Shown here piece by piece: positions 26,770 to 57,177 of a stretch of 64,000 nt of DNA. Origin of the DNA: a candidate division FCPU426 bacterium (GTDB lineage Bacteria; Oederibacteriota; PGYV01; Palsa-1178); the NCBI GenBank assembly GCA_963840035.1, contig CAWIXE010000002.1:288001-352000 (forward strand), read 5' to 3'. How positions within the stretch are numbered: position 1 is the first letter of the stretch; each line of letters opens with the position of its first letter. Below the pieces are notes generated by a model that had not been told where the DNA came from, did not search any database, and was given only the letters and a program-made list of their open reading frames with translations. The translations under genes and the position numbers were made by a program.

Positions 26770-26787
26770 TATCAGTGAAGGCGAAAG

Positions 26788-37189: not shown

Positions 37190-39162
37190 AAAAAACTTAC
37201 ATACTGAAAATTATTCCCGCAGCGCTTTTTTTTCTTGCCATACTTGCTTTATACACGGGGAACATGGCGCCTTCATTTAATTCGGACGACAGCCCCGAGA
37301 CTTCAGTGGCATTTCATACGCTTGGGGTCCAGCACCCGCCCGGGTATCCATTAAATACCATGATAGGAAAAATATTCACGTTTATCCCGCTGGGCAGCAC
37401 TGCTTTCAGGGCAAACCTGATGTCCGCGTTTTTTTCTCTGCTTGCGGGTTTCATGATATACCTTCTTGCATTTTCCACGGCGAAAAAACACTTTAAGCTT
37501 GAAGAGAACGGGGAAGCCCAGGCAGCGGCGCTGATAGCCGCGGTATTTTACATGCTCGGAGCCTCGGCGTGGCTCCAGGGAAGCTTCGCGAAGGGTTCCA
37601 TATACGCGTTAAACAGTTTTCTCCTGGCTGTATGCCTGTGGGCGCTTTTCAGGGCCGGGGACGGGAAAAAATTCCTGTACCTGTTTTCATTTATATACGG
37701 GATATCCATGGGAAACCACTGGACTTCCATGGCGGTAATCGCGCCGGCGGCCCTGTTTTACCTTTTCATGAAGAGAAAAAGCCTTACGTTAAAATCGTTG
37801 ATGACCGCGGCCGCCTTTTTTATTTTTGGCTGCGGCGTATATTTATACGTTTGGATACGCAGCGCCGGGATGCCGGCATACGCGTGGGGGGACATCAAGA
37901 CGGTTAATGACTTCATATGGCTCATATCCAGGGCGCAATACTCGGGTATCGAGAACGCGCATAAGCTGTCGCATACCGCGGGGCTGCTCATGTTTTACTT
38001 AAAAAACCTGTTTTACAGCGAGTATCCGCTGTTCTTTGCGCTGCTGCTTATACCCGGCGCGTATATCCTTATCAAAAAGGATTTTGCTCAGGGCGCGGCA
38101 ATAACGGGCGCGTTCCTGCTTGTCGCGGTAAGCGTGGCGTCGTTTGCGACGCCTCCGGCAAAAACCGAGTGGATAATAAAACCCTACATGGTATCGACAT
38201 ATGTCTTTGCCGCGCTTTTCGTTTCGGCTTTTTTTTCATGGGCCGCCGGGTTCATAGGCAAAAAGGCCCGGGTGTATGCCTTAGCCGGCGCGCTCGCGGT
38301 TTTAACCGCGGCCATGGCGTTTTTCAATAATCCGGGTTATTCCAGGTATTTTATCGGATATGATTTTGCTGAAAATATATCCAAGACCCTGCCTGAAAAT
38401 TCAATAGTTTTTACTGAAGGCGACATGAATGTCGGGGCCGTACTGTATAAGACGCTTGTCGACAAAGAAAAATTCACGCCGCTCATACCTGTGGTCCTGC
38501 TTTATGACTGGTACTTAGGCCAGGTCAAACGCAATTACCCTGGCAGCGTGAACCTGCCGGAAAAAGGAAGCTCGCCCGGGGCATACATACTATCCATAAT
38601 TCAGGCTAACCCGGGAAGGCTGTTTTACTATTCAAACGTGTATAACGCCGGTTTCATAAACCCTTCAATGCTCACGCCAAACGGCCTTTTGTACAAAATC
38701 CAGGGGCCGGCCGAGCGCAGGGTCGTAAGCGATACCCCCATCGCAGTTTATTCTTTCAGGGGCTTGACAGGCAAGAGGGTTAAATATGACGAATTCACGC
38801 AGAGGCTGGTGCTGGATAATTACGCGATGGCGTTTTTTACGTTGGGGGATTCGATGCGGATGGCGAACTATTTTGGCGTGGCATCGGCTTTCTACGAACG
38901 CGGCCTGCTGTTTGCTGAAAACAGCGGCGCGTATACCAACGTGGGGCTCTGTTATTATTACATGAAAAACATGGCAAAGGCCGAAGAAAAATGGGAAAAA
39001 GCGTCCCAATTGGCCCCAGACGACCCCACAATACTCACCAACCTCGCGTTTGTTTACGCGGCAAGGAACGACAGGGCAAAAGCGAGGGAATACGCGGAAA
39101 AAGCCTTAAGGATTAACCCCGCAAACCCAACCGCGGCGCAGATTATTAAAAACCTTAAATAA
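37186..39162 (+). CDS. DUF2723 / TMEM260-like GT-C protein with C-terminal TPRs
   Basis: DSPE, HPPGYPL, FRANLMS, GNH, EGD motifs; many TMs; TPR tail. Confidence 0.85.
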   Translation: MKKTYILKIIPAALFFLAILALYTGNMAPSFNSDDSPETSVAFHTLGVQHPPGYPLNTMIGKIFTFIPLGSTAFRANLMSAFFSLLAGFMIYLLAFSTAKKHFKLEENGEAQAAALIAAVFYMLGASAWLQGSFAKGSIYALNSFLLAVCLWALFRAGDGKKFLYLFSFIYGISMGNHWTSMAVIAPAALFYLFMKRKSLTLKSLMTAAAFFIFGCGVYLYVWIRSAGMPAYAWGDIKTVNDFIWLISRAQYSGIENAHKLSHTAGLLMFYLKNLFYSEYPLFFALLLIPGAYILIKKDFAQGAAITGAFLLVAVSVASFATPPAKTEWIIKPYMVSTYVFAALFVSAFFSWAAGFIGKKARVYALAGALAVLTAAMAFFNNPGYSRYFIGYDFAENISKTLPENSIVFTEGDMNVGAVLYKTLVDKEKFTPLIPVVLLYDWYLGQVKRNYPGSVNLPEKGSSPGAYILSIIQANPGRLFYYSNVYNAGFINPSMLTPNGLLYKIQGPAERRVVSDTPIAVYSFRGLTGKRVKYDEFTQRLVLDNYAMAFFTLGDSMRMANYFGVASAFYERGLLFAENSGAYTNVGLCYYYMKNMAKAEEKWEKASQLAPDDPTILTNLAFVYAARNDRAKAREYAEKALRINPANPTAAQIIKNLK

Positions 39163-39283
39163 ATTTTCAATTTTCCATTCTGAATTTTCAATTAAAACAG
39201 AGCTTTTTGCAGGGATTTTTATTTTGAGTTCTTATATTTGAGTTGTTGTGGTTGATTGAAAATATAAAATTGAAAATTCATAA
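39162..39283. repeat. Heptamer hairpin element TTTTCAA family
   Basis: aattttcaattttccattctgaattttcaatt ... attgaaaatataaaattgaaaattcataatt. Confidence 0.85.
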
Positions 39284-39302
39284 TTGTATTCATAAATGCC
39301 TG

Positions 39303-39371: not shown

Positions 39372-40700
39372 ATGAAATTGTCACGTAAAATCATTATAAT
39401 TATGGCTCTATTTCTTCTTTTTTCCGCACAGCTATTCCCGGCGGGCGGAGCGGGGATAACTTCTTCTAACTTCCTTAAATTATCCCAGGGCGCAAGGCCG
39501 GCGGGCATGGGTGAGGCTTTTGTCGCGATCGCTGACGACGTCAACGCTGTTTACTGGAATCCGGCGGGATTAGCCCAGCTGACACGCAACCAGGTATGCC
39601 TGATGCATTCTGTCTGGCTTGTGGATGTAAACTTTGAATACATGGCTTACGCCCTTCCCATAAAGGGCTTCGGCACGATCGCGGCTTACGGATTATTCTT
39701 AAATGCCGGGGAAATATTCAAAACCGGGGAAACTCCCGCGGGAGATTATTTATATGACGGCGCGAAGATAAAGGCCACGGATTTTAACGTGACTGTGGCA
39801 TACGCCAAAAAATTATCGGAAATAATCGGGGATGACTCGCTTTTTGCGGACTTATCGCTCGGAATAAACGTCAATATTATCAGCGAAACCATAGCGGATG
39901 ATACCGGCGGCGGATTCGGGGTAAATATCGGCGCTTATTTTTACCCGCGCTATGAAAATTATTCCATGGGGCTGACCCTCGAGAACATCGGGGTTGCCAA
40001 TAACCGCCCGTCGCTGCCCTCGGTCGTTAAATTCGGCTTTGGCTACAGGTTCCCGCTGGAAAACGCCTTCATATCATTCACTGAAGAAGGCTCCTTCAAC
40101 TACATTGAGAATAACGCGGCAGGTTCCGTGGATATACTTTACTACCCGGTGGAAGGTTTCTTTAAGGTCAGGATGGGCGTTGAAAAGTACTGGGAACTGA
40201 ATAAATTCCACACAATAGCCTTAAGGCTCGGTTACAAATTCTTTGAAGACCTTGGGGCGCTCGCCGGTATCACGGCGGGTTTCGGCTACAGGCTTACAGT
40301 AAATAAGGAAACTACCGTTGACGTGGATTACGTTATGTCGCCTTATGCCGAGCTCGGGCTTTCCCAGAGGATATCGGTGACAGGCAAGTTCCTGGGAACC
40401 CCTGAAAGCCATTCCACTGAAAACCCGAAGGAAGCTTCCGTATATTATAAAAAAGGATATGAACTCCTTTACAAAAAACAGTTTTCCAACGCGCTTATCG
40501 AATTCTCAGAGTGCATAAAAAGATACCGCAACTACGCGCCGTCATACATGGGCATAGGCGCCTGTTTTTTAAACATGGGCAAGAAAGCCATGGCAATGAA
40601 AGCTTACGCTAAAGCCCTTGAAATCGACCCGACTAACACCAAACTTAAGGATTATGTGGAGCAGCTTAAAGCCCAGATACCGCCGGTTCCCGGAAGGTAA
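39372..40700 (+). CDS. PorV/PorQ(FadL)-family beta-barrel fused to C-terminal TPRs
   Basis: FLKLSQGARPAGMGEAFVAIADDVNAVYWNPAGLA signature; LRLGY, LGLSQRIS; TPR tail. Confidence 0.85.
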   Translation: MKLSRKIIIIMALFLLFSAQLFPAGGAGITSSNFLKLSQGARPAGMGEAFVAIADDVNAVYWNPAGLAQLTRNQVCLMHSVWLVDVNFEYMAYALPIKGFGTIAAYGLFLNAGEIFKTGETPAGDYLYDGAKIKATDFNVTVAYAKKLSEIIGDDSLFADLSLGINVNIISETIADDTGGGFGVNIGAYFYPRYENYSMGLTLENIGVANNRPSLPSVVKFGFGYRFPLENAFISFTEEGSFNYIENNAAGSVDILYYPVEGFFKVRMGVEKYWELNKFHTIALRLGYKFFEDLGALAGITAGFGYRLTVNKETTVDVDYVMSPYAELGLSQRISVTGKFLGTPESHSTENPKEASVYYKKGYELLYKKQFSNALIEFSECIKRYRNYAPSYMGIGACFLNMGKKAMAMKAYAKALEIDPTNTKLKDYVEQLKAQIPPVPGR

Positions 40701-40757: not shown

Positions 40758-41753
40758 ATGAGGGTTACGATAAAGGACATAGCAAAGAGGGTGGGTGTGA
40801 CCCCTGCCACTGTTTCCATGGTCATAAACAACAGCCCCAAGATAAGCCAGAAAACAAAGGAGCTTGTGGCAAGCGCCATAAAGGAAATGAACTACCATCC
40901 TAATTATATAGGAAGAAGCCTCGTCAAAGGCAAAACCAATAACATCGCGGTTGTGGCTTCATTTTTTGCGTCGCTTTTTGCCCTTGAGTCTGTCCGCGGC
41001 ATAGAGGCGAATCTAAGGAATACCCAGTATAACCTGATACTGTATTCGACCAGAGGGCTTGAGGAAAACGAGAACGAGATGCTCCGCAGGCTTTTTTATG
41101 AACGCAGGGCCGACGGGATAATAATCATCTCGTTAAGGATGGAAAAGGAACTTCTTGACGAATTCAAGAAGGAAGGCATACCCGTAGTTTTCATAGAAGA
41201 GGTCATAGAAGGCGCGCCAACAGTAAAATTTAAGAATATAAAGGGCGCATATATGGCCACGGAATACTTTGCCAAGAATAAGAGGAAAAACATAGGGCTT
41301 ATAGTGGGGGAATCAGGATTAAACGCGGAGGAACGGCTTAAAGGCTATAAAGACGCCTTAAATGATTTTGGCATGGCATTTGACGAGAAGAATGTCGTGA
41401 GGGTGAAAAATTATAATTTCGAAGAAGGGGAAAAATGCTTAAAACAGCTCCTTAAAAAATCCCCGGATACAGACGCCATATTCTGCGCGGCCGGGGACGT
41501 GACGGCCATAGGCGTGCTTGACGCCGCAAAAGCCATGGGGGTTAAGGTGCCTGACGACATAGCGGTCATCGGGTATGACGATATTTACATATCAAACCTG
41601 ACAAACCCTTCGCTTACCACCATAAGGCAGCCCATCGCCCAGATGGGAAGGCAGGCTTTTGACGTGCTCATGGATATAGTGGAAGGCAAGACGCCGTATG
41701 AAAGCAAAATTATCAGTTTTGAGCCGGAACTCATTATCCGCGATTCAGTGTAA
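40758..41753 (+). CDS. LacI-family transcriptional regulator
   Basis: TIKDIAKRVGVTPATVSMVIN HTH; VPDDIAVIGYDD, PSLTTIRQP. Confidence 0.96.
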   Translation: MRVTIKDIAKRVGVTPATVSMVINNSPKISQKTKELVASAIKEMNYHPNYIGRSLVKGKTNNIAVVASFFASLFALESVRGIEANLRNTQYNLILYSTRGLEENENEMLRRLFYERRADGIIIISLRMEKELLDEFKKEGIPVVFIEEVIEGAPTVKFKNIKGAYMATEYFAKNKRKNIGLIVGESGLNAEERLKGYKDALNDFGMAFDEKNVVRVKNYNFEEGEKCLKQLLKKSPDTDAIFCAAGDVTAIGVLDAAKAMGVKVPDDIAVIGYDDIYISNLTNPSLTTIRQPIAQMGRQAFDVLMDIVEGKTPYESKIISFEPELIIRDSV

Positions 41754-41761
41754 AAAACCTT

Positions 41762-42688
41762 ATGCCGCTTTCTAAAAACCGTATTTTTAAATCATTGTTT
41801 ATATCAGCGGTTTTGTTCGCGGCAATTCCTTTCAAAATATCTGCTGCCGGAAATACAGCCGGTAGTTTTCTGCTTGTAAACATTCAGGCCAGGGAAACAT
41901 CGCTCGGAGGCATATATGCCCCGTATTACGCGCGGCCCGGGGCTTCCACCATGAACCCGGCAACCCTTCAGGGAATAAAGAACAGCTATGTGATATTTTC
42001 CCATTATGCCTCTGTTTTTAACACGCACTACGAGCAGGTGCAGTATGCCTTGCCGCTGGATGTTTCCTCGTGCGCGGGAGCGTACCTGATGTATTCCGCT
42101 AACGACACTCTCTTTAGGACAAATGAATTCGGCGAGCCTGTGGAGAGGATTGAAAATTATGACGCCATAATAGGAGGGACATATTCGAGGGCCCTCAATG
42201 AAGAGTATAATATAGGGGCAAATCTGAAAGTTGTGGCTGAAAAACTTTATAACAGCACGAACTTCGGGGCGGTTATAACAGCGGGAATGCTTTACAGAAA
42301 TTATGAAAGCAGGTACACTATAGGCGCGGATATTGAAAATTTGGGGATTGGCACATCTTTCTTTAAGGAAAAGACACTGTATCCCATAGTGTTCCGGGCG
42401 GGTTACGGCACTGAAGTATATAAGTATGAGGAAGAGTATAAAATATCGCTTTACATAGAGGAACGCGTTTTTTTAAATGAGGATGAAGGCACCGAGACTT
42501 CTTTCGGGATGGAAGCCATATACAAAAAGTTTTTTGTCTTCAGGTACGGATATATTTTCGGCAGGAACGAGGGCCGGGTGGCCACGGGCGCCGGGATAAA
42601 GCTAAACGATTTTTTTGTGGATTACGCGTATCAGCCGTACTTTGTGTCCGACAACGCGCATAGGGTGACTATAAAATACATGTTTTAA
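41762..42688 (+). CDS. Second, divergent PorV/PorQ-family beta-barrel
   Basis: FLLVNIQARETSLGG...MNPATL; FRYGY, VDYAY, HRVTIKYMF with terminal Phe. Confidence 0.78.
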   Translation: MPLSKNRIFKSLFISAVLFAAIPFKISAAGNTAGSFLLVNIQARETSLGGIYAPYYARPGASTMNPATLQGIKNSYVIFSHYASVFNTHYEQVQYALPLDVSSCAGAYLMYSANDTLFRTNEFGEPVERIENYDAIIGGTYSRALNEEYNIGANLKVVAEKLYNSTNFGAVITAGMLYRNYESRYTIGADIENLGIGTSFFKEKTLYPIVFRAGYGTEVYKYEEEYKISLYIEERVFLNEDEGTETSFGMEAIYKKFFVFRYGYIFGRNEGRVATGAGIKLNDFFVDYAYQPYFVSDNAHRVTIKYMF

Positions 42689-42770
42689 TTTTGGATTTTC
42701 AATTTTAAATTTTCAATTAACGGCAGATCCTGCCTTTAATTGAAAATTTAAAATATAAAATTGAAAATTG
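42687..42770. repeat. Heptamer hairpin element TTTTCAA family
   Basis: aattttggattttcaattttaaattttcaattaa ... ttaattgaaaatttaaaatataaaattgaaaatt. Confidence 0.9.
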
Positions 42771-42778
42771 GAAGGCAC

Positions 42779-43360
42779 ATGGACGAACTTGAGATCATAA
42801 AGCGCGTTAAAAAAGGCGAGACAAAATATTTTGAGGAAATCATAAACAAATACAAAAAGGTCGTATTCGGCCATTGTTATAATTTTTTGCGCAACAGGGA
42901 AGACGCGGAGGACGTGACGCAGGAAGTGTTTGTCAGCGTATATAACAACCTCGCCTCTTTCAGGGGCGACTCAAAGCTCTCCACGTGGATATACAGGATA
43001 ACCATGAACAGCTGTAAGAACAGGTTAAAACAGATGCAGCGCCTGAAAGCCAATTTTATCGAGGAGTTTTATGAGCCGGGCGGCGAGGAAAGGGAAAGCC
43101 TGGTAAACGAGATACAGGAAAAGGAAGAAAAACAGCCGGACAAGGAATTTGTGTCCGATGACATGCGTAAGACCGTTTATAAAAGGATCGATGAGCTCAC
43201 GGAAGAACAAAAAAACGTGATACTTTTGCGTGATGTGGACGGGCTGTCTTATGAGGAGATCGGCCAGTTGTTGAAGCTTTCTGTTCCGGCAGTTAAATCA
43301 AAACTGTTCAGGGCAAGGGAGAATTTAAGGGAAAAGCTTCAGAAAGACAATATCTTATAA
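42779..43360 (+). CDS. ECF RNA polymerase sigma factor (ECF-2, RpoE/SigW-like)
   Basis: DAEDVTQEVF, FRGDSKLSTWIYRI, GLSYEEI, VKSKLFRAR. Confidence 0.95.
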   Translation: MDELEIIKRVKKGETKYFEEIINKYKKVVFGHCYNFLRNREDAEDVTQEVFVSVYNNLASFRGDSKLSTWIYRITMNSCKNRLKQMQRLKANFIEEFYEPGGEERESLVNEIQEKEEKQPDKEFVSDDMRKTVYKRIDELTEEQKNVILLRDVDGLSYEEIGQLLKLSVPAVKSKLFRARENLREKLQKDNIL

Positions 43361-43401
43361 TTGTCAATTCGTTGTGTCAGGTTTTTATGTAAAAATACAG
43401 C

Positions 43402-43429
43402 GAAACTTTTTTAGCGGGTCGTTGTCATA
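43402..43429 (+). promoter_or_regulatory. ECF-2 promoter candidate before the anti-sigma gene
   Basis: GAAACT-N16-GTCATA. Confidence 0.6.
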
Positions 43430-43454
43430 TATTTAACGATTGGAGGTTTAAAAA

Positions 43455-44420
43455 ATGCAAGAAATAAAATGCGAAAAACATAAAGAGCTGATTATGGAAA
43501 TGGTGGACGGTGAAATTAAAGCCGGTGACATTTCCATTGTTGAATCTCATTTGAAATCATGCAAAGAATGCGCCGATTATAAAAAAGACCTTATAAATAT
43601 GACCGTTTTTACGAATTCTATGAAAGTTGAAGCTCCGGATTTCATGGAAACAAGGATTATGGCAAGGATTGCCGCTCCAACAGCAGTTTCCGGGTTCAGG
43701 TGGTTTCCTGCATTATCATATGGAAGCACTTTTGCTGTGGCAGTCATAGCAGGCTTTCTCCTTATATATAACAAGCCTGGAACCGTTGAAGTTAATACTG
43801 CGTCAGTCAAAAAAGCTGAAAAAACAACGGTTGCGTCAGTAAAGAAAGTTACGACTGAAACTTCAAAAACAACTGTAAAATCAGTTGAAATAGCGAAAAA
43901 AGAAGCGCCTGCAGTCATTGATCCACCTAAAAATGAAGAAAAAAAGGAAGTAATTGCTTCCGCGCCATATATGGCGCCGGTTAATTCATCCAATTCAGGC
44001 ATGAGCCAGCAGGTTGTGCCGTCAGGCGGAAACAAGTCAAATGGAGTTTCGCAGGTTGAAAATAGCGGTATGGTATCGGCCGCAAGCGGATTGGACAAAG
44101 TTCCGGTTCCCACGAGAATACCTTTACTTGAAAGTGAAAAAGCGATTGTGGCGAATAACCTTATAAACCCTGACAGGGGAGAAACATCAAGAATAATGAT
44201 TAATGTTGAAGATGCCTGCAGGGTCAGGATAATGATTTACGACAAAAACATGCAGGTTGTCAAAGAGATAGTCGACGAAGACAAACTTCCGGGCAAATAT
44301 GAAGCCTTATGGGCGGGGAAAAATGACGAAAACCGCACAGTTTCACAGGGCGTATATTTTGTTTACATTCAGCTCGGGAAAAGGGTAATTAAAAAGAATA
44401 TTATGGTGGTAAAACAGTAA
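43455..44420 (+). CDS. Zinc-finger (ZAS) anti-sigma factor with TM, linker and C-terminal FlgD-Ig/CTD-like domain
   Basis: HLKSCKEC (HxxxCxxC), one TM, NPDRGE...IYDKN...WAGKND...VSQGVYFV...KKNIMVVKQ. Confidence 0.85.
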   Translation: MQEIKCEKHKELIMEMVDGEIKAGDISIVESHLKSCKECADYKKDLINMTVFTNSMKVEAPDFMETRIMARIAAPTAVSGFRWFPALSYGSTFAVAVIAGFLLIYNKPGTVEVNTASVKKAEKTTVASVKKVTTETSKTTVKSVEIAKKEAPAVIDPPKNEEKKEVIASAPYMAPVNSSNSGMSQQVVPSGGNKSNGVSQVENSGMVSAASGLDKVPVPTRIPLLESEKAIVANNLINPDRGETSRIMINVEDACRVRIMIYDKNMQVVKEIVDEDKLPGKYEALWAGKNDENRTVSQGVYFVYIQLGKRVIKKNIMVVKQ

Positions 44421-44430
44421 CACTTTCAAT

Positions 44431-44516
44431 TTGACAAAATGAGCGGGAAAGCTTAAAATTAAAAGATATTGACGTGTTATATAAAGAGGAAATTTAAGGT
44501 GTTGGAATAGGTCTAT
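44431..44516 (+). promoter_or_regulatory. Tandem sigma70 and ECF-2 promoter candidates
   Basis: TTGACA-17-TAAAAT (44431-44459); GAAATT-N16-GTCTAT (44489-44516). Confidence 0.65.
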
Positions 44517-44568
44517 ATATTGTTTTATTTTTTAGGCGAAACAATAAACGAGAGGCGGTACTTATTAC

Positions 44569-47500
44569 ATGAATAAATTATTGAAGGCGTTAGGTACCTT
44601 TTTATTTATATCTGTTATTTTTTGTTATATCACGCCCGCGGCAAGCGGATACGCGACATATCAGGTGACGTACGCGGCGGGGTCGGCGCAGCTAGCGGAC
44701 TCGGCGCTGCTTGAGTCGACGTATTACCCCAACTGGAAAAGCAACTTTGTCGTGACAGCTGGGGCATACCAGAGGGTGAGGTATCCTGAAGGATTGAACA
44801 ATAACGCCGTATACGGCGGTACAGCGTCGGAAGGAATCGGATACGGGATGCTGCTTGCGGTATGGTTTGATGACCAGCCGCTGTTTAACAATTTATGGAA
44901 TTATAAGGTACAGCACTCGGTAAAAGGCGGGCTGATGGCATGGCTCGTGGACCAGAACGGAAATAACTTAGACCCGAACTCCGCGACAGACGCGGACGAA
45001 GACATAGCCATGGCGCTGATACTGGCCCACCGCAGGTGGGGAAGCTCCGGGGTTAACTACAATTCCCTTGCGAGTTTGGAAATCGGAAAGATATCGTCGC
45101 AGGACATAGACACTACGGATTTCCACCCGTACCCGGGGGATTACTGCACGCACGCAAGCAACACAAACACATACCCGTCATACTTCACGCCGGCATGGTA
45201 CCGCGAGTTCGGTATACAGAGCGGAGACACGACGACATGGAACAAGGTAATAGCAAGGACATGGACGATGCTGACCACTGGCGGAACCAGGAGCGGCACA
45301 ACGGGGCTGGCGACAGAGTTGTGCACGGCAAACGGAGGCGCGGTATCAAACATAGACAGTTACAATTCGTGCAGGATACCGTGGAGGTATTCGCTGGATT
45401 ACTGCTGGAACACGGACGCGAACGCGCTGGCGCAGATAAAGCTGAACGCGGCGTTTTTTAACGGATCAGCGACGACATGCGGAGCGGGATACGACATAAA
45501 CGCGGCAAACAACGGAGTAAGGCAGGACGCGACGCATAACGGATCAAGGGTAGGGCCGGTAACCACGGCGTTTATGTACAGCACAGCGCCGGCGGGGCAG
45601 CTGCAGGCGTTTTACAATGACGCTGTAGCGCAGCAGTCGGACACTGGACATTTTTATAACGTATCGCTGGCATTATTAGGAATGCTGCAGGCAACAGGAA
45701 ACTGCCCGAGGATGTTCGGGGCAGCACAGCCGACGCCGACGCCGAAACAGGGAGACCTGTTTGACGACTGCGAAGACGGGGACAATGTAAATATGTGGGG
45801 CGGCTACTGGTATACATACGATGACAATGATAACAATAATAAAGGCACCTCGCTTGTAGTGCCGTGGTCGGACAACCACTCGGCAACAGCGGGAAAGACG
45901 CCGACGCCGTTTTCCATGCAGGCGCCGGGATATCCGACAAGCCCGTACGGCACGGTATTTGGGGCCAGGATGACGGGAAATGTAACCACGGCATGCGCGT
46001 GGGGATTCATAGGGATGGGGTCAGGGACAAGCGCTGACAGCGGATCGCCCACATATGCGGTAAAGGACCTGACGGTATACGGGCTGGCTGCGGGAGGATT
46101 CCGTTTCAAGGTAAAAACCAATGACATTAAGCATTATACGGTAAAGATATCATGCCCGGCGTCTGTAACAAGCGCGGCGGGAGCGGATTATAATTTTGAT
46201 TTTGCCGGATCCACGGCGTGGTCGCAGGTGGACGTGCCGTTCTCGGCGCTGACACAGCCGACATGGCGCACGATAATCATGGATAAGGCGCTGGTATTGA
46301 GAAACGCGACAGACCTTCAGTGGCAGACCGTAGGCCAGCCGACAACGCAGTTTGACATAATGGTGGACGACATAGAGTTCTACCCGGCCCTGCCGGCGAC
46401 ACCTACGCCGACATATTGTGTCGGAGAAAAGCTTGACAGCATGGAAGACGGGGACAACATGAACGAGTTTGGCGGGTTCTGGTATACATACGCCAATGAC
46501 ACAGGTACGGCAAAAGCGTCGACAATATGGCCTGACTCGCCGCATGGGGTCACATTTACCATGAGCGCGCCCGGAGCAAACGGTTCCTTGTTCTGCGCGA
46601 GGATAACAGGGACGGTAAGCAATGCAACAGTGCCGTTTGTCGGGATGGGGACGAACATGAGGTCTGACGGGTCAAGCGCCAACATGGGCGGATTTATCGG
46701 GCTCACATTCTGGGCAAAAGGCGACGGAAACCTGTACAGCGTAAAATTAAAGTCTGACCCGACCGTTATAACTGGCGGCAACGAGTTCAAGTACACATTC
46801 AGGAGCACCATAGGAGCGTCCGAGGGATGGGAACAGATGAACATACCGTTCTCCATATTCACGCAGGAGAGGGGATGGGGCACAAAGACCACGGTGGCGT
46901 TAGTGCTTGCCAAACTGCAGCAAATACAGTTTGAAAGCAAGGGGCCCAGCCATACGGTTGATTTCTCAGTGGATGACGTGGAGTTTGAGTGCTCGCAGAA
47001 CTGGACTCCCACGGTAACTAAAACAATTCAGCCTCCAACAAGCACCATTACGCCCACGCATACGGTATCGCCCACATGGACCAGCTCAAATACGAAATCC
47101 GCGACGCCGACCAAGACGGACACGGCAACATATACTTCCACGGCAACAGGCACGTATACAAAATCATCCACGCCTACCGGGACATATACCAATACGCCGG
47201 CAAACACATCCACAAATACGCCGACAGGCACGAACAGCGCCACCAGGTCAGCGACGCCGACACCCACATTTACAAATTCCCCGGCAAACTCGCCGACGGA
47301 TACCCCGACGGCTACAAGCACTTCCACAAAATCTTCAACCGCGACTTCCACATATACAAATACGCCTATCAATTCCCCGACTAATACGCCGACTGTAACT
47401 GACACGGGCACGAAGACGGCCAGCCCGACGGAGTCTTCGACAAAAACAAGCACGCCGACCGTGACAGAAACCAGCTCGTTTACAAATACGCCGACAAGTT

Positions 47501-48462
47501 CTAACACGGCCACGGTAACGCCTACATTTACTCAAACCCAGACTTTCAGCAATACGCCCACGGCCACGGAGACAGGCACGACAACCGAAACATGGACTGT
47601 TTCGCCTACTTTCACGGCATCCCCTACGATATCAGAGACATATACGAACAGCCCGACATATACGGTTACGGATACAAAAACGTATACCGCTACGGCTACG
47701 CCCAGCAGCACAGGGACCAGCACCAATACAGCCACGGTTACTCCGACCGCGAGTTCCTCTGTCACGGCTACATCTTCGATAAGCCAGACTTCCACGCCGG
47801 GCAATACCTTTACATATACAAATACGCCGGAGAATACATTCACAAACACGCCGGGCAATACCGCCACATATACGAACACGCCGGTAAATACTGCCACAAA
47901 TACGCCGGTTAACACGTCAACAAACACCCCTGCTAACACGGCGACAAATACGCCTGTCAATACCGCAACGAATACTCCGGCAGATACGGCCACTTTTACC
48001 AGGACAAATACTCCTGTGGATACGGCTACTTTCACCAAGACCAATACGCCGGTTAATACCGCAACCGGAACATACACGCCCACAAGCACCATCACAAAAA
48101 CGTTATTACCCACAGCGACGGTTACATATACATCCACGCCGGACACTCAGGCTGTTGACGGATTGAAGCCGCATCCAAACCCATATAACCCTAAAAAAGG
48201 GGATCTGCTTATAGGATTCAGGGTTGCCCGGCCGGATGTGGATTCTATCACTATCAAAGTTTACACGTCGGGGCAGAGGCTTATCAGAAGTGTTACCTTG
48301 AATCAGGCCCAATCCATCATAGCCATGAATATTGGTTATATCGGATGTAAGGCGGATCTGTTTAAAAGTTTATCAAACGGCACCTATTATTACATGATAA
48401 TCGCCAAAAAAGGCGGCACAGAAACTAAATCAAAGATTGACAAAATTATAATATTAAAGTAA
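44569..48462 (+). CDS. GH8 glycanase + 2 CBM11/CIA30-like modules + Thr-rich stalk + T9SS-like CTD
   Basis: [39 protein letters not shown]...LSNGTYYY...KIIILK. Confidence 0.9.
44625..47014 (+). repeat. 2390-bp direct repeat, copy 1
   Basis: Appears identical to 48581-50970 (offset 3956); translations and shadow ORFs match. Confidence 0.95.
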
Positions 48463-48530: not shown

Positions 48531-51500
48531 ATGAATAAAAAATTGGTTTTTGTCCTTTTTACTATTATTGCGTGCATGTTTTATATCACGCCCGCGGCAA
48601 GCGGATACGCGACATATCAGGTGACGTACGCGGCGGGGTCGGCGCAGCTAGCGGACTCGGCGCTGCTTGAGTCGACGTATTACCCCAACTGGAAAAGCAA
48701 CTTTGTCGTGACAGCTGGGGCATACCAGAGGGTGAGGTATCCTGAAGGATTGAACAATAACGCCGTATACGGCGGTACAGCGTCGGAAGGAATCGGATAC
48801 GGGATGCTGCTTGCGGTATGGTTTGATGACCAGCCGCTGTTTAACAATTTATGGAATTATAAGGTACAGCACTCGGTAAAAGGCGGGCTGATGGCATGGC
48901 TCGTGGACCAGAACGGAAATAACTTAGACCCGAACTCCGCGACAGACGCGGACGAAGACATAGCCATGGCGCTGATACTGGCCCACCGCAGGTGGGGAAG
49001 CTCCGGGGTTAACTACAATTCCCTTGCGAGTTTGGAAATCGGAAAGATATCGTCGCAGGACATAGACACTACGGATTTCCACCCGTACCCGGGGGATTAC
49101 TGCACGCACGCAAGCAACACAAACACATACCCGTCATACTTCACGCCGGCATGGTACCGCGAGTTCGGTATACAGAGCGGAGACACGACGACATGGAACA
49201 AGGTAATAGCAAGGACATGGACGATGCTGACCACTGGCGGAACCAGGAGCGGCACAACGGGGCTGGCGACAGAGTTGTGCACGGCAAACGGAGGCGCGGT
49301 ATCAAACATAGACAGTTACAATTCGTGCAGGATACCGTGGAGGTATTCGCTGGATTACTGCTGGAACACGGACGCGAACGCGCTGGCGCAGATAAAGCTG
49401 AACGCGGCGTTTTTTAACGGATCAGCGACGACATGCGGAGCGGGATACGACATAAACGCGGCAAACAACGGAGTAAGGCAGGACGCGACGCATAACGGAT
49501 CAAGGGTAGGGCCGGTAACCACGGCGTTTATGTACAGCACAGCGCCGGCGGGGCAGCTGCAGGCGTTTTACAATGACGCTGTAGCGCAGCAGTCGGACAC
49601 TGGACATTTTTATAACGTATCGCTGGCATTATTAGGAATGCTGCAGGCAACAGGAAACTGCCCGAGGATGTTCGGGGCAGCACAGCCGACGCCGACGCCG
49701 AAACAGGGAGACCTGTTTGACGACTGCGAAGACGGGGACAATGTAAATATGTGGGGCGGCTACTGGTATACATACGATGACAATGATAACAATAATAAAG
49801 GCACCTCGCTTGTAGTGCCGTGGTCGGACAACCACTCGGCAACAGCGGGAAAGACGCCGACGCCGTTTTCCATGCAGGCGCCGGGATATCCGACAAGCCC
49901 GTACGGCACGGTATTTGGGGCCAGGATGACGGGAAATGTAACCACGGCATGCGCGTGGGGATTCATAGGGATGGGGTCAGGGACAAGCGCTGACAGCGGA
50001 TCGCCCACATATGCGGTAAAGGACCTGACGGTATACGGGCTGGCTGCGGGAGGATTCCGTTTCAAGGTAAAAACCAATGACATTAAGCATTATACGGTAA
50101 AGATATCATGCCCGGCGTCTGTAACAAGCGCGGCGGGAGCGGATTATAATTTTGATTTTGCCGGATCCACGGCGTGGTCGCAGGTGGACGTGCCGTTCTC
50201 GGCGCTGACACAGCCGACATGGCGCACGATAATCATGGATAAGGCGCTGGTATTGAGAAACGCGACAGACCTTCAGTGGCAGACCGTAGGCCAGCCGACA
50301 ACGCAGTTTGACATAATGGTGGACGACATAGAGTTCTACCCGGCCCTGCCGGCGACACCTACGCCGACATATTGTGTCGGAGAAAAGCTTGACAGCATGG
50401 AAGACGGGGACAACATGAACGAGTTTGGCGGGTTCTGGTATACATACGCCAATGACACAGGTACGGCAAAAGCGTCGACAATATGGCCTGACTCGCCGCA
50501 TGGGGTCACATTTACCATGAGCGCGCCCGGAGCAAACGGTTCCTTGTTCTGCGCGAGGATAACAGGGACGGTAAGCAATGCAACAGTGCCGTTTGTCGGG
50601 ATGGGGACGAACATGAGGTCTGACGGGTCAAGCGCCAACATGGGCGGATTTATCGGGCTCACATTCTGGGCAAAAGGCGACGGAAACCTGTACAGCGTAA
50701 AATTAAAGTCTGACCCGACCGTTATAACTGGCGGCAACGAGTTCAAGTACACATTCAGGAGCACCATAGGAGCGTCCGAGGGATGGGAACAGATGAACAT
50801 ACCGTTCTCCATATTCACGCAGGAGAGGGGATGGGGCACAAAGACCACGGTGGCGTTAGTGCTTGCCAAACTGCAGCAAATACAGTTTGAAAGCAAGGGG
50901 CCCAGCCATACGGTTGATTTCTCAGTGGATGACGTGGAGTTTGAGTGCTCGCAGAACTGGACTCCCACGGCCACCAAAACAACTCAGCCGGCCTCGCCGA
51001 CTAATACGGAATCATGGACGCCGTCACCCGCAATAACATCGACATTTACGGGTACCAGGACAAGCACGGTGACGCCGTCATTCACAAAGACTGATACGCC
51101 CTATTACAGCCCGACGGATACGCGGACACCCGTACCTCCTACGGAAACCTGGACGGCATCGCCGGCTTTTACGGCTACGGATACAATGACGCCGCTTCCA
51201 CCGACCTCCACATTCTCGGTATCGCCCATAGCATCGGCAACAAATACGCCGCTGCCGGCAACCGCGACAAATACACCGATGCCTCCGACAATGACTAATA
51301 CGCCATTGCCTCCCACATCCACAAATACGCCGATACCGCCGACGCTGACATTTACACCGATACCGCCATCTCCGACAATAACGAATACACCTGACACAAG
51401 CCTTCCGGTTGATGTGCTTATAGACGACTGCAATGATGGTGATAACGCAAACTTACACGGCGGTTACTGGTACGCGTTTGATGACGCAGGAACAGGGTTG

Positions 51501-53360
51501 TCATATACGGATCCTGTATCTGACAAACGCGCGGTTGTTGACGGCAGGCCGACAGAGACCTTTATGATGAAAGCACCTGACCATACAACAGGAATGTCAG
51601 GTGGAGCGGCCAAGGTAACCGGTGCGGTAATAAATACGGCGGCAGACATCGCGGCTGGCAAAGGCTATGGTTTTATTGGAATGGGTACTAATCTTGCCCA
51701 GCCGGAAATGCCAAAAGATATAGGCTGCTGCAGTGGAATAAGTTTCTACGCCAGAAGTTCAAGTTCCACCATGACATCTTTCAGGATGAAACTGGGACAC
51801 CCGAACGCGTTTACGCCTCCAAATCCAAGCGAGAACATGTATGGAAAAGCGTTCCCGCTGACGTCAACATGGACACTTATTACCATACCATTCAGTGACT
51901 TAACTCAGCTTCCATGGTGGGGAACAACAATTCTGAGGACAGACGCCCTGAAGTTTGTTAATTCCATACAGTTCCAGTCAACAGCTCCGGATAATACAAA
52001 TGTTGCGGGCATTGACCTTGAGGTAGACGATTTGACAATATATAACTGCGTCGGAGGCTGTATGCCTACGCCGTTACCTACAGTTGTCATACCCCCGACA
52101 CCGACTATAACACCAACGCCCAATGCGCCGCTTGTGGATTTCCTTGTGGATGACTGCACGGACGGGGATAACGCGAACAAGCTCGGAGGATACTGGTACA
52201 CATTTGATGACGCAAATGCGTCAACACATTCATATGTCTGGCCCATGTCGGACAAATGGGGCGTGATTAAGGCCGTTCCGACATATGCTTTTATCATGTC
52301 GGCGCCGGGATATAATAGCACGGGTTTTGCGGCGCAGATGACCGGAACCACGACCAATGAGCTTCTGTCAGGAACCTCATATATTGACTTCCTTGGAATG
52401 GGAACAAATCTATCGGAACCCAAAGGCCCGATACAGCTTAATTGCTGCGGAGGCGTCAGGTTCTACGCAAAGTCAGACACCCCGGGCGTAATGGCTAATT
52501 TCAGGGTAAAACTCGGCGCAACAGCCGCGTACGCACTGGCCGGAGGCGAGGGCGGGGATATGTACGGCAAGGAATTCACGGTGACAAATACATGGCAGCT
52601 TTATCAGATAGGCTTTGACAGCTTTACAGCGGAAGGCTGGGGTGCCACTAATTACCCGGGAAATCAGCCTTCAAGGGCGCAGGCTCTGGCACAGGCTGAC
52701 TCTATTCAGTTCCAGTCAACCGGACAGGGGAAGGCAAACATAGACCTCTGGGTTGATGACCTGTACCTTACAAACTGCTATTCGGGATGCGTTGCGGCAC
52801 CGCCGGCACCGACTAGCACAAACACGCCGAATATACCGGCAACAGCGACTAACACACCTTATATCGGTCCGTCAGCGACAAATACGCCTATAGTTCCGAC
52901 AGCGACAAACACGCCGTACATACCGGGCGGTCCGACAGCGACTAACACTCCTTATATACCTGGAGGCGCTACAGCAACGCCGACGGCAATGCCGGTGTCT
53001 GATGTGCTCGAAATAGTGCCCGGTACAGTCGTTGTTTATCCTAATCCGGCAATGAATGACACAGACCCGATTATAATAAGGTTCTTATTAAGAAAAGAAG
53101 CGTCTGAAGCTACAGTAAGGGTATTCACCTCAGGTATGAGGCTTGTCAGGGAGGCAAAAGTTACCCTTCCCATGTCAGGCCCGTCAGGAAATATCCTCGG
53201 AGCTATGGGGCCTGTCAGCGGCGGCGGAACCTGCTATATAGGGTTGAAATATGATTTCATCAAACCGCTTTCAAAAGGCACATATTACTTCGTCATAGAT
53301 GTTAAGAAAGGCAGTGAAACCGCAAAATCAAAAGTTGAGAAGATAATAAAACTTAAGTAA
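48531..53360 (+). CDS. GH8 glycanase + 4 CBM11/CIA30-like modules + Pro/Thr linkers + T9SS-like CTD
   Basis: Same GH8 and first two modules; two further DDC.DGDNAN..GGYWY.FDD modules; YPNP...LSKGTYYF...KIIKLK. Confidence 0.9.
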   Translation: MNKKLVFVLFTIIACMFYITPAASGYATYQVTYAAGSAQLADSALLESTYYPNWKSNFVVTAGAYQRVRYPEGLNNNAVYGGTASEGIGYGMLLAVWFDDQPLFNNLWNYKVQHSVKGGLMAWLVDQNGNNLDPNSATDADEDIAMALILAHRRWGSSGVNYNSLASLEIGKISSQDIDTTDFHPYPGDYCTHASNTNTYPSYFTPAWYREFGIQSGDTTTWNKVIARTWTMLTTGGTRSGTTGLATELCTANGGAVSNIDSYNSCRIPWRYSLDYCWNTDANALAQIKLNAAFFNGSATTCGAGYDINAANNGVRQDATHNGSRVGPVTTAFMYSTAPAGQLQAFYNDAVAQQSDTGHFYNVSLALLGMLQATGNCPRMFGAAQPTPTPKQGDLFDDCEDGDNVNMWGGYWYTYDDNDNNNKGTSLVVPWSDNHSATAGKTPTPFSMQAPGYPTSPYGTVFGARMTGNVTTACAWGFIGMGSGTSADSGSPTYAVKDLTVYGLAAGGFRFKVKTNDIKHYTVKISCPASVTSAAGADYNFDFAGSTAWSQVDVPFSALTQPTWRTIIMDKALVLRNATDLQWQTVGQPTTQFDIMVDDIEFYPALPATPTPTYCVGEKLDSMEDGDNMNEFGGFWYTYANDTGTAKASTIWPDSPHGVTFTMSAPGANGSLFCARITGTVSNATVPFVGMGTNMRSDGSSANMGGFIGLTFWAKGDGNLYSVKLKSDPTVITGGNEFKYTFRSTIGASEGWEQMNIPFSIFTQERGWGTKTTVALVLAKLQQIQFESKGPSHTVDFSVDDVEFECSQNWTPTATKTTQPASPTNTESWTPSPAITSTFTGTRTSTVTPSFTKTDTPYYSPTDTRTPVPPTETWTASPAFTATDTMTPLPPTSTFSVSPIASATNTPLPATATNTPMPPTMTNTPLPPTSTNTPIPPTLTFTPIPPSPTITNTPDTSLPVDVLIDDCNDGDNANLHGGYWYAFDDAGTGLSYTDPVSDKRAVVDGRPTETFMMKAPDHTTGMSGGAAKVTGAVINTAADIAAGKGYGFIGMGTNLAQPEMPKDIGCCSGISFYARSSSSTMTSFRMKLGHPNAFTPPNPSENMYGKAFPLTSTWTLITIPFSDLTQLPWWGTTILRTDALKFVNSIQFQSTAPDNTNVAGIDLEVDDLTIYNCVGGCMPTPLPTVVIPPTPTITPTPNAPLVDFLVDDCTDGDNANKLGGYWYTFDDANASTHSYVWPMSDKWGVIKAVPTYAFIMSAPGYNSTGFAAQMTGTTTNELLSGTSYIDFLGMGTNLSEPKGPIQLNCCGGVRFYAKSDTPGVMANFRVKLGATAAYALAGGEGGDMYGKEFTVTNTWQLYQIGFDSFTAEGWGATNYPGNQPSRAQALAQADSIQFQSTGQGKANIDLWVDDLYLTNCYSGCVAAPPAPTSTNTPNIPATATNTPYIGPSATNTPIVPTATNTPYIPGGPTATNTPYIPGGATATPTAMPVSDVLEIVPGTVVVYPNPAMNDTDPIIIRFLLRKEASEATVRVFTSGMRLVREAKVTLPMSGPSGNILGAMGPVSGGGTCYIGLKYDFIKPLSKGTYYFVIDVKKGSETAKSKVEKIIKLK
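48581..50970 (+). repeat. 2390-bp direct repeat, copy 2
   Basis: Appears identical to 44625-47014. Confidence 0.95.
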
Positions 53361-53553: not shown

Positions 53554-53619
53554 AGGAATGAAACGCTATTTTACAGTATTATTGGTTTCATATAGCAAAA
53601 CCGTATCTATTATTTTATC

Positions 53620-53647
53620 GGAACATTTGTTATAATAATTTGTCTTA
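53620..53647 (+). promoter_or_regulatory. ECF-2 promoter candidate (with embedded TGnTATAAT)
   Basis: GGAACA-N16-GTCTTA. Confidence 0.6.
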
Positions 53648-56700: not shown

Positions 56701-57177
56701 GTAAGCACTGCCACAAATACTCCGGTAAACACGCCGCAAAATACCCCGGTAAATACAGCGACCGCGACAAAAGTGCCTACTATGATTATTACCCCGACAT
56801 TTACACGGACGGCAATGCCGACAGCCGCGGAAACCCCCACAAATACGCCAATTACTGCCGCGACAAAAACAGATATAGAAATAATTCAGGTTAAACCTTT
56901 CCCGAACCCGTATAGCGGGACAGGGGATATGTCGCTGGGCCTTGAAATAACCAGGGCAATTAAGCAAATTGACATTTATATTTATACCTCCGGTTCAAGG
57001 CTTGTCAGGCATTATGCGCTTAATGAAAACCATGCCGCGGGATACTGCGTACTGGACATCAGCGGCGATAAATTTAACGGGCTTGCAAAAGCCACGTATT
57101 ACATGGTCGTAAAGGTGAAGGCTGATAACAATAAGGAAGCCGTCAGCGGTATTGAAAAGATAACTATTTTAAAATGA
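53704..57177 (+). CDS. GH9 endoglucanase + CBM3-like module + Thr-rich stalk + T9SS-like CTD
   Basis: YGAQRCG, GGWHDCGDHVK, HPHHR, TEGGIDYNA; IKITN...DISTLKWRVW and DDYS CBM3-like; FPNP...YYM...KITILK. Confidence 0.9.
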   Translation: MLKEKRLTKSPKSLFILLFLFFSSTMFAAHDYRNALYLTTYYYGAQRCGTSYSWLFGACHVKDSDGAAKIDGGWHDCGDHVKWMGTGAYACGVLLEGYLAFSSSYEDRYQQTNSNGASDGIPDIVNEAKVYTDFLLKALSGGKLYDQIGNFGSGTGGDHKHFSEPHDQSLNYTSAEGGESDGPRVFRGVTAASNLAGKAAASLALMAIAYKNIDLAYATQCYNKAKDYFTFGDATKAVSSSVQGSYYTETNWADDMSWGAIAIYRASVALGTPDTSYRTKAITYADDAGFQGAGYWVLCWDHTEQMANYGLWLVTGDTKYSGRMKTEVDKYKTKLVNCTSGSYMFFGSGWGELRYGTAAAFVCMLYNKNVAADAAAVDVAKKTIDYVLGTHSTAGDAPAGRSFVVGYSNPDNVAAGWVQHPHHRGAFGKTKAQNADQLFQNEKASPGSVPYTNVLKGSMMGGLTGNCSTFTDNIDSYQWTEGGIDYNAGIVGAIAGLVNYLNPPTPTYSPTQNLSMTRTYTPTVSPTYTITPIPPATHKLNLEIKSASLANTCGEQAMNYDIKITNYDSVDIDISTLKWRVWLNTAASIVVEKYDSRIFDATGTGTSNQPGVASSETAIGSICSLGGKTANKYIDVTFTGAYSIPANGGYLYMKGVVRTSSYANLDPECDDYSTIPGAWAAYTNSSTFTLYEGTNLVCEYLNSTTQDTANTGINPCTGATGCPGATTKTNTPTAPTFTATPTRTNTPVPTPTSTATRTNTPVAPTATHTSTRTVTLTNTPQPPTYTFTSTLTNTPVQPTATFTATKTNSPVPPTSTFTLTRTNTPLPTDTFTPLPTVTFTSTFTASKSATPTPTPTVTRTSSRTATPTVSVTSTKSITPTLTITQTHTASPTETDYAGTPTDTWTSSATPTITQTHTGSPTETWSVTDTYTATPTFTSTDLPTETNTPVNTATMVLPSSTNTPVSTATDTPVDTPVYTATNTQVNTPVNTFTNTPVDTQVSTATNTPVNTPQNTPVNTATATKVPTMIITPTFTRTAMPTAAETPTNTPITAATKTDIEIIQVKPFPNPYSGTGDMSLGLEITRAIKQIDIYIYTSGSRLVRHYALNENHAAGYCVLDISGDKFNGLAKATYYMVVKVKADNNKEAVSGIEKITILK

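Follow-up and report, generated by a model that had tools for sequence, protein, structure and literature searches.

Two adjacent genes at positions 42779-44420 (+ strand) of a 64,000-nucleotide (nt) stretch of DNA from a candidate division FCPU426 bacterium (contig CAWIXE010000002.1, positions 288,001 to 352,000; hereafter the window) encode an extracytoplasmic function (ECF) sigma factor and a membrane-anchored anti-sigma factor, and the latter ends in a C-terminal domain (CTD) that resembles the tails of type IX secretion system (T9SS) cargo. On balance, we lean towards a reading in which the pair forms a trans-envelope switch for cellulase genes, its sensor being the cargo-type CTD, which would dock on a PorV-like carrier. 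The observations beneath this reading are the architecture of the anti-sigma factor, the linkage of the genes around it, their conservation, a promoter motif and a modelled interface between the tail and a neighboring barrel. The first-pass annotation of this DNA had taken the span as a single gene; the translations show two, which are given below with the parts of the anti-sigma factor. Coordinates are positions in the window; C1 and C2 denote contigs of the same genome, and L001-L010 and L041 denote loci.

42779-43360, + strand: ECF (RpoE-like) sigma factor, 193 aa (Sigma70_r2 62.7 bits, Sigma70_r4_2 59.3 bits)
43455-44420, + strand: anti-sigma gene, 321 aa (zf-HC2 domain, membrane helix, linker, C-terminal beta-sandwich)
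43455-43700, + strand: cytoplasmic zinc-binding domain of the anti-sigma factor, residues 1-82 (zf-HC2)
43701-43769, + strand: its single transmembrane helix, residues 83-105 (from the model and the hydrophobic stretch in the translation)
43770-44117, + strand: its disordered periplasmic linker, residues 106-221
44118-44420, + strand: its C-terminal beta-sandwich, residues 222-321 and stop codon (T9SS-CTD-like / FlgD_ig superfamily)

The sigma factor scores 111 bits with TIGR02937 (cut-off 42.9) and contains regions 2 and 4 only, as in the ECF group (group 4). Its partner has the N-terminal domain and HxxxCxxC motif of a class I zinc anti-sigma (ZAS) factor of the RsiW type. The zf-HC2 model matches residues 6-40 with 22.9 bits (cut-off 22.2), C6, H32, C36 and C39 are invariant among 19 relatives (alignment A1), and the family profile matches the solved anti-sigma domain of RsiW (5wuq_C, E 5e-7). 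As judged from sequence and supported by gene adjacency, this domain would hold the ECF sigma factor in the cytoplasm. An AlphaFold model made from A1 places helices at residues 4-55, with a predicted local distance difference test (pLDDT) score of ~92, followed by the membrane helix and by a segment that is disordered (pLDDT ~32 over residues 110-208). The linker measures 114-161 aa in all 18 relatives in which both landmarks were found; its sequence is unconserved and it is always long. Thus, the earlier description of the protein as a ZAS factor with a transmembrane segment and a flexible linker is borne out.

The tail is modelled as a seven-strand beta-sandwich (pLDDT ~94) that ends at the last residue of the protein. 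Its best second-look fold match is the CTD of PorU (6za2_B, Z 10.0, root-mean-square deviation 2.3, 90 residues aligned), and further matches include the CTD of PorZ (Z 8.7) and that of NucA in the T9SS complex (8glk_D, Z 8.2). When solved structures were searched with the family profile by sequence, only RsiW and FlgD were matched and no T9SS tail. K313 and K320, near the C-terminus, are invariant in 19 sequences; a near-terminal lysine is also described as invariant in T9SS tails (PMC10994853). The protein therefore has the C-terminal beta-sandwich and near-terminal lysine of a T9SS type A CTD, the fold itself being common. It lacks the Sec signal peptide of type A CTD proteins: the N-terminus is the cytoplasmic zinc domain, and the sole hydrophobic helix is at residues 83-105.

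The tail also links the anti-sigma factor to large proteins of the same genome by sequence. A single-sequence search with residues 221-321 against 11,507 open reading frames (ORFs) of the genome matched numerous large proteins at their C-termini (E 3e-14 to 1e-3), and several of these proteins are TIGR04183-positive. An iterated search seeded with the tail converged on 106 ORFs, in 77 of which the domain lies no more than 12 residues from the C-terminus, and reached all four glycoside hydrolases encoded 3' of the anti-sigma gene, two of family 8 (GH8a 3.5e-17, GH8b 1.7e-13) and two of family 9 (GH9b 6.2e-12, GH9a 1.4e-9). Five tail-bearing cargo proteins had been counted in the first pass. The four enzymes stand, and the set of 106 ORFs does not include the 805-aa protein that follows them (60792-63209). 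The window does encode a fifth protein with such a tail, but a long way 5' of these genes, at 11928-15740 (FlgD_ig 62.2 bits).

Within the anti-sigma family the tail is the best conserved part of the protein, with a mean pairwise identity of 0.60; the zinc domain reaches 0.41 and the linker 0.19. Compared over one set of five genomes, identity is 0.55 for the anti-sigma tail, 0.33 for the adjacent GH8 cargo tail, 0.49 for the small PorV-like barrel encoded 5' of the sigma gene and 0.58 for the sigma factor. We also built a tree in which 57 anti-sigma tails were placed with 98 tails of cargo, the cargo coming from this genome only, over just 98 alignment columns. The anti-sigma label requires 3 changes on this tree versus 46.6 for shuffled labels, and a tree with the anti-sigma tails as one clade is not rejected (p-AU 0.914). 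This grouping suggests that the fusion is old and vertically inherited, and not copied repeatedly from local cargo. The same result led us to reject an origin of the tail as a recent copy of a neighboring cargo tail.

The pair is embedded in a cassette of genes on the same strand, and its position between PorV-like genes and tail-bearing enzymes agrees with the first description of the locus:

39372-40700, + strand: PorV/PorQ-family barrel that opens the cassette and has a TPR tail at its C-terminus (NF033709, 139.5 bits, cut-off 90)
40758-41753, + strand: LacI-family repressor, a cytoplasmic sugar-responsive regulator (LacI 70.7 bits, Peripla_BP_3 106.4 bits)
41762-42688, + strand: small PorV-like 14-strand barrel, directly 5' of the sigma gene (NF033709, 104.6 bits)
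44569-48462, + strand: GH8 enzyme (GH8a) that has a CIA30/CBM11-like module and ends in a tail of the second subtype (Glyco_hydro_8, 140.2 bits)
48531-53360, + strand: second GH8 enzyme (GH8b), with a tail of the GH8a subtype (Glyco_hydro_8, 140.4 bits)
53704-57177, + strand: GH9 enzyme (GH9a) with a C-terminal tail (Glyco_hydro_9, 240 bits)
57615-60518, + strand: GH9 enzyme (GH9b) with a C-terminal tail (Glyco_hydro_9, 266.6 bits)

The ORF listed for the first barrel starts at 39243; judged from the translation, its likely start is the Met at 39372, which is followed by a signal-peptide-like stretch. TPR_1 matches residues 432-465 of the listed ORF with 39.1 bits. The order PorV-TPR, LacI, PorV-like, sigma, anti-sigma is kept in all ten related loci from public genomes, across which the anti-sigma factor is only 32-45% identical. 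A GH8 gene comes next in eight of these ten loci, and the DNA ends in the other two.

The small barrel was modelled with about 14 strands (predicted template-modelling score, pTM, 0.80), and its best fold matches are the PorV of F. johnsoniae (8gl6_F, E 5e-14, TMq 0.81) and 6h3i_F (TMq 0.78). Both cassette barrels belong to the PorV/PorQ family by NF033709, and both fall short of the PorV equivalog NF033710 (33.9 bits for the small barrel and 57.1 bits for the PorV-TPR protein, cut-off 250). The first pass had proposed a structure prediction of the CTD with PorV. We modelled residues 12-291 of the small barrel (34-row alignment) together with residues 212-321 of the anti-sigma factor (19-row alignment), and the predicted complex scored 0.93 in each of three runs, versus 0.00 for the best of three controls. 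In a benchmark, the mark used for such complexes was attained by 116 of 157 solved complexes and by 2 of 215 mismatched pairs. Each partner has a pLDDT of at least 89, and contacts agree by at least 99% between runs. Barrel contact residues occur at every second turn (67-71, 97-115, 145-150, 182-188, 223-225, 251-254 and 276-280), on the side of the barrel away from the C-terminus, where the longest loop is found in the modelled strand order. By the usual topology of outer-membrane barrels, this would be the external loop face. On the tail side, the interface takes in 39 of 110 residues and 10 of 18 invariant positions (N235, Y262, D263, V296, G299, Y304, Q306, V311, K313 and K320).

Structures of the translocon show the tail bound to loops of PorV within the pore of SprA, with the passenger left at the periplasmic rim (PMC10994853). 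By analogy, a protein tethered to the inner membrane could adopt this geometry, given a linker longer than 110 aa.

A second module of the same kind lies on another contig of the genome. Its first gene encodes a 194-aa ECF sigma factor and its second a 313-aa protein that combines HxxxCxxC with a membrane helix and a linker and ends in the same tail (FlgD_ig 33.2 bits; TIGR04183 20.8 bits, cut-off 23). Two PorV-like barrels and two tail-bearing proteins are encoded next: a CARDB protein of 650 aa directly after the first barrel, and a beta-propeller protein of 1490 aa, which a 205-aa ORF that has no family match separates from the second barrel. Gene-set counts in this genome rest on a crude set of 2900 genes. 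This set holds 10 small sigma-70-family genes, of which only the two in the modules are followed by a zinc-type anti-sigma gene with the tail; a PorV-like gene lies within three genes of both of these, and of none of the other eight. Among 39 PorV-like genes, the small barrel has its closest paralogs in the second module, whose two barrels score 98.4 and 75.9 bits, ahead of the next gene at 56.8. Similarly, the closest paralog of the sigma factor is the sigma factor of the second module (135.8 bits; next 112.4), which returns it only as second-best, and the tails of the two anti-sigma factors are each other's best match. The two modules thus look, by their sequences, to have been duplicated as units.

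The second module bears directly on what the switch might sense. If the FadL-fold PorV-like barrel sensed or imported cellulose breakdown products and relayed this to the anti-sigma tail, the system would report substrate and not secretion state, and would resemble FecA-FecR or the SusC-like/anti-sigma pairs of Bacteroides polysaccharide loci. Such nutrient-type cell-surface signalling fits the regulated genes, which are GH8/GH9 cellulases, and FadL and TodX are among the fold matches of the barrel. There is also a precedent, since RsgI/SigI of Clostridium thermocellum control cellulase genes in response to extracytoplasmic polysaccharide through an anti-sigma factor. However, the paralogous modules regulate surface proteins that are not enzymes (CARDB, beta-propeller), so a sugar signal cannot be general, and the cassette already has a sugar regulator of the LacI type. 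The barrel is, moreover, far nearer PorV in fold than FadL/TodX (~1e-8, TMq ~0.6). A Pfam search found no FecR family match in the anti-sigma factor, and the neighbors are PorV-like barrels and not TonB-dependent receptors. We therefore consider this alternative unlikely.

The switch architecture extends well beyond this genome. Searching 1.84 billion representatives with a profile brought up about 20 orthologs and a second tier of full-length relatives of 280-360 aa. At E≤0.01, 39 second-tier relatives (alignment A2) were matched by FlgD_ig in 39 cases, CHU_C in 28, PF18962 in 7, zf-HC2 in 11, TIGR04183 in 19 and the NCBI anti-sigma model in 22. A cluster look-up of 10 second-tier relatives yielded two names, "hypothetical protein" and [quoted passage not shown] (NCBI name), neither of them tied to a lineage. 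A search with the anti-sigma factor of the second module matched 7 proteins, likewise with no lineage attached. We then surveyed 99 genomes of the phylum, from 23 families; among the best 150 of 528 matches, which are those listed, there are at least 57 full-length anti-sigma-CTD proteins, in at least 40 of the 99 genomes and at least 14 of the 23 families.

In 30 of 30 further loci from the phylum, a sigma gene lies directly 5' of the anti-sigma gene. A PorV-like gene is directly beside the pair in 21 of these loci and one gene further in 1 more, and three of the 30 end right after the pair. Wider flanks were obtained for five further stretches. Three of them show sigma, anti-sigma, one or two tail-bearing cargo genes and then a PorV-like gene, and two of these three are loci among the 30 that had shown no barrel; the other two stretches have no barrel in range. 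The predicted co-occurrence of the architecture with PorV-like genes was therefore found in most of these loci. Taken together, gene order, the second module, the 21 of 30 loci, sequence conservation, the complex model and a promoter motif shared with cellulase genes make a functional tie between the anti-sigma tail and PorV-like outer-membrane proteins well supported.

The gap between the sigma and anti-sigma genes carries a candidate promoter, and similar elements occur before the GH9 genes:

43401-43429, + strand: ECF-type promoter motif GAAAC-N17-GTC in the sigma/anti-sigma gap, 26 nt before the anti-sigma start codon
44431-44459, + strand: sigma-70-like promoter 5' of GH8a, with 11 of 12 consensus positions
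53619-53647, + strand: ECF-type promoter motif 5' of GH9a, found by pattern search
57534-57562, + strand: ECF-type promoter motif 5' of GH9b, found by pattern search

We take GAAAC-N17-GTC to have the form of RpoE-type ECF promoters. In all 11 loci the gap measures 70-110 nt and the motif occurs at the same spacing, followed by a short leader and a ribosome-binding site. In the window the strict pattern CGRAAC-N17-GTCWWA was observed 3 times versus 0.04 expected (5' of the anti-sigma gene, GH9a and GH9b). Because this pattern was derived from the window sites themselves, independent support for the motif comes from its conservation in other loci. The motif is also found 5' of the GH8 genes in L001, L006 and L007, and in L009 and L010 the anti-sigma stop codon is followed, after 11-12 nt, by the start of the GH8 gene. 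Genome-wide, a loose pattern ([CG]G[AG]AAC, 16-18 nt, GTC[AT][AT]A) gave 28 matches, 15 intergenic and 13 intragenic, and 7 of the 15 intergenic ones are upstream of tail-bearing genes; the loose pattern alone is non-specific. As a separate observation, the best-scoring PorV-family gene of the genome (C2:65108-66183, 188.5 bits) has CGGAAC-N17-GTCTAA 103 nt upstream.

In 8 of 11 loci, 6-21 nt lie between the small barrel gene and the sigma gene, and the sigma factor is therefore probably made together with the barrels and LacI. A search for public sequencing runs that contain positions 41700-46000 listed none, RNA data sets included. With the anti-sigma gene and the cellulase genes on the ECF-type promoter, the circuit would contain negative feedback. 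An AT-rich palindromic element is present in two copies in the window, 5' of the PorV-TPR gene (39147-39286) and 5' of the sigma gene (42672-42770); its arms of ~35-40 nt are 88-89% complementary, and it is absent from the matching gaps of the ten related loci.

Several results weigh against the switch reading. In curated Pfam models the anti-sigma tail stays below threshold for both FlgD_ig (24.8 bits, cut-off 27) and CHU_C (16.9 bits, cut-off 27), and it has no TIGR04183 match at E≤0.1 and no PF18962 match at E≤1. Pairwise phmmer comparison with the tail returned none of GH8a, GH8b, GH9a and GH9b at E≤10; its closest pairwise relatives are the second anti-sigma tail of the genome, a 526-aa protein and cargo of the second locus. 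As there is no pairwise match to the GH tails, the genome appears to hold at least two tail subtypes, with the anti-sigma factor outside the subtype of its neighbors, and simple competition for one site is consequently not evident. The original claim that the tail resembles the C-termini of neighboring cargo thus stands at superfamily level, through the iterated search, and gives way below it, where the tail is a separate subtype that misses the T9SS-CTD thresholds.

Further points concern the loci, the interface and the promoters. The related loci are kin and thus non-independent samples. Since PorV-CTD complexes have already been solved (8gl6, 8glk), the score of the modelled complex may reflect likeness to them and not binding by this copy. 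GH8a has a sigma-70-like promoter as well, and TTGACA/TATAAT-like pairs also occur 5' of GH8 in L007 and L008. Finally, the sigma factor described here is the presumed reader of GAAAC-N17-GTC, and there are 10 candidates for that role among the small sigma factors of the genome.

The fold of the tail is itself generic, with unrelated Ig-like domains scoring Z 8-9 against it, nearly as high as T9SS tails, and a library-wide profile search finds the same domain as up to 15 internal repeats in giant proteins. Homology alone does not prove a sorting tag, because the same domain occurs as such repeats. These results, together with a best Pfam match that is a sub-threshold FlgD_ig, suit a generic periplasmic sensor, in which an Ig-like domain of FlgD_ig type would bind an envelope ligand or protease and the PorV-like neighbors would reflect mere co-regulation of surface proteins. 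Such a sensor is at odds with the placement of the domain at the extreme C-terminus in most of the 106 genome ORFs and with the TIGR04183 and CHU_C matches in the wider anti-sigma family. Additionally, the PorV-like neighbor co-diverges with the module, and the complex with the adjacent barrel is predicted so distinctly above its controls. We judge it improbable that the tail is no more than a sensor of this kind.

The secretion background of the genome, which is 98% complete, is rich in tails and carriers. PorV/PorQ-family matches number 39, of which 27 exceed the cut-off, and 24 of the 39 genes lie directly beside a tail-bearing gene. TIGR04183 has 40 matches, 34 over the cut-off, and this anti-sigma factor is not among them. 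The remaining components count, with the points above, against our reading. The SprA model matches as four collinear pieces (73.3, 62.6, 46.9 and 28.6 bits) in one 2177-aa frame, each below the cut-off of 200; the SprA-like protein itself is 2165 aa long and is encoded ~43 kb downstream, and in Pfam it matches fn3 only, with no SprA family. The PorU model matches proteins of the genome in the tail only, and no PorU-type sortase was found in the genome search. GldM, GldL and PorP/SprF had no match in the genome, and their controls likewise gave no signal anywhere, so that absence is not shown; GldK gave generic weak pieces only (best 34.9 bits, cut-off 350), and none of these searches, that for PorU included, had a positive control. 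The overall picture is that of a reduced T9SS relative organised around numerous cargo/barrel pairs. The first-pass proposal that the secretion machinery engages the anti-sigma CTD is accordingly supported for the tie between tail and PorV-like barrel, by gene order, the modules, conservation and the predicted complex, and not for a canonical T9SS, which is not evident in the genome.

Two other features of these genes were noted. The SprA-like gene, at C2:374859-384589 (L041 7859-17589), is followed by genes for two fn3 proteins, one of 818 aa and one of 250 aa, the latter with the tail. On its 5' side are genes for TPR proteins, a further member of the LacI family, and two genes that resemble those for an O-antigen ligase and a heptosyltransferase. 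Some PorV-like barrels have the same Ig-like domain fused before or after the barrel (e.g. C2:365328-367643, C2:392348-394462, C2:988870-990720 and C1:296089-298413).

As a mechanism for the switch we propose the following. The anti-sigma factor would hold the sigma factor at the inner membrane while its tail crosses the periplasm to contact the PorV-like barrel, perhaps within the SprA-like pore, as the tails of real cargo do. The state of this contact, with the carrier free or occupied by enzyme cargo, would decide whether the anti-sigma factor is cleaved by a site-1 protease and then by RseP, a site-2 protease type that is present in the genome (312.9 bits). Sigma factor so freed would drive the anti-sigma gene, as negative feedback, and the cellulase genes, and LacI and a sigma-70 promoter would control the supply of sigma factor and barrels. 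We infer that tail and barrel bind in the cell, that their contact provides the trigger, whichever its sign, and that this sigma factor reads the motif. We favor the state of secretion or of the carrier over substrate as the signal because the paralogous modules control surface proteins that are not enzymes and because the cassette has its own LacI.

More tentatively, the anti-sigma factor can be pictured as a tethered decoy cargo. Its tail would sit in the SprA-like pore, held by the dedicated PorV-like carrier, so that one polypeptide spans the envelope, and free carrier or translocon capacity would be read as cleavage or stabilisation of the decoy, tuning transcription of the cellulase cargo to the export route. 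This would be a secretion checkpoint made from a secretion tag, in a phylum with a reduced, motor-less relative of the T9SS. We regard this picture as possible and, taken as a whole, somewhat doubtful.

The first description had likened the switch to FlgM, an inhibitor that is itself exported, and this analogy has no support because the anti-sigma factor is anchored by a membrane helix. A variant would be that a cut close to the membrane frees linker and tail to be exported and displayed like cargo, and that removal of the anti-sigma factor by the secretion route is the activating step. The tail does have cargo-like features, and only C-terminal fragments of the anti-sigma factor Dma1 were detected in the outer-membrane vesicle fraction (PMC10927553). 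However, the sigma-binding part stays behind the membrane helix, so export cannot remove it unless regulated intramembrane proteolysis acts as well, and the PorU-type sortase is among the components missing from the search results; our data do not distinguish export from mere docking. Activation by export of the inhibitor is, in our estimate, very unlikely.

Other parts of the window lie outside this argument. The gene for the 805-aa protein after the GH9 genes has no Pfam family, and its product ends in an aromatic residue, as outer-membrane barrels often do; an ortholog also follows GH9 in L006. It is followed by a gene for an exported protein of at least 258 aa (63225-63998), which runs past the end of the window. 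Leucyl-tRNA synthetase is represented by two ORFs ~210 nt apart, 1407-2903 (catalytic N-terminal part and editing domain) and 3114-3941 (C-terminal part, anticodon-binding domain), and could be a split gene or reflect an insertion or a frameshift. Positions 15912-25925 hold cyclic-di-GMP-type signalling genes, which encode three GGDEF proteins, an HDOD protein and a GAF/HD protein. The region 26167-27627 holds another ECF sigma gene (198 aa), and the 279-aa ORF after it has no family match, zinc motif or tail.

If the switch reading is true, the fusion of an export tag to an anti-sigma factor would couple the transcription of exported enzymes, directly and at the molecular level, to the outer-membrane route that exports them. 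It would extend a recently recognised class of envelope-spanning anti-sigma factors and offer a testable function for many PorV-like barrels outside Bacteroidota, such as the 39 in this genome, of which 24 are encoded next to a tail-bearing gene. It would also give a handle on cellulase control in uncultured cellulose degraders. The proposed contact between tail and barrel could be tested with two small recombinant proteins.

A literature search found no paper that joins an anti-sigma factor with a T9SS-type tail; the closest systems were PorA-PorXY-SigP and the Dma anti-sigma factors. The main text of a large ECF classification paper has type IX secretion in its reference list only, and the main text of a paper on Goldbacteria cellulases does not discuss PorV, sigma factors or C-terminal domains.

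Of the systems that are known, RsiW/SigW of Bacillus subtilis and other class I zinc anti-sigma factors share the N-terminal domain, HxxxCxxC and single-pass topology with the protein described here, and the genome has the RseP-type site-2 protease; the extracytoplasmic part is unrelated. RsgI/SigI of Clostridium thermocellum are likewise membrane anti-sigma systems that control cellulase genes from outside the cytoplasm, but they are Gram-positive, use a different sigma family and sense with carbohydrate-binding modules that bind polysaccharide directly. The T9SS type A cargo tail on PorV in the SprA translocon (PMC10994853; 8gl6, 8glk) is similar in its beta-sandwich, near-terminal lysine and, in our model, loop-face contact. 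Here, in contrast, a membrane anchor replaces the Sec signal peptide, the curated tail models are missed, and the GldKLMN motor and PorU were not seen in the genome.

The Dma anti-sigma factors are alike in having an N-terminal sigma-binding part, one inner-membrane helix, a long disordered periplasmic region, an outer-membrane-associated C-terminus and an ECF sigma partner. They differ in carrying their own eight-strand outer-membrane barrel (OMP_b-brl_2) at the C-terminus, where the protein described here has a soluble seven-strand sandwich that would need a separate PorV-like barrel; a Pfam search found no OMP_b-brl_2 match in it. In addition, Dma controls vesiculation, whereas our anti-sigma factor is in a cellulase locus. 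The PorA-PorV-PorXY-SigP system of Porphyromonas gingivalis is comparable in that a protein with a T9SS-type CTD signals to an ECF sigma factor. PorA bears a tail that binds PorV, it acts upstream of PorXY-SigP, and its authors proposed feedback on secretion capacity (PMC7712824). Unlike the anti-sigma factor, PorA is a separate surface protein that signals through a two-component system, with homologues reported only from Porphyromonas. Because the tail is fused directly to the anti-sigma factor, no such relay would be needed here.

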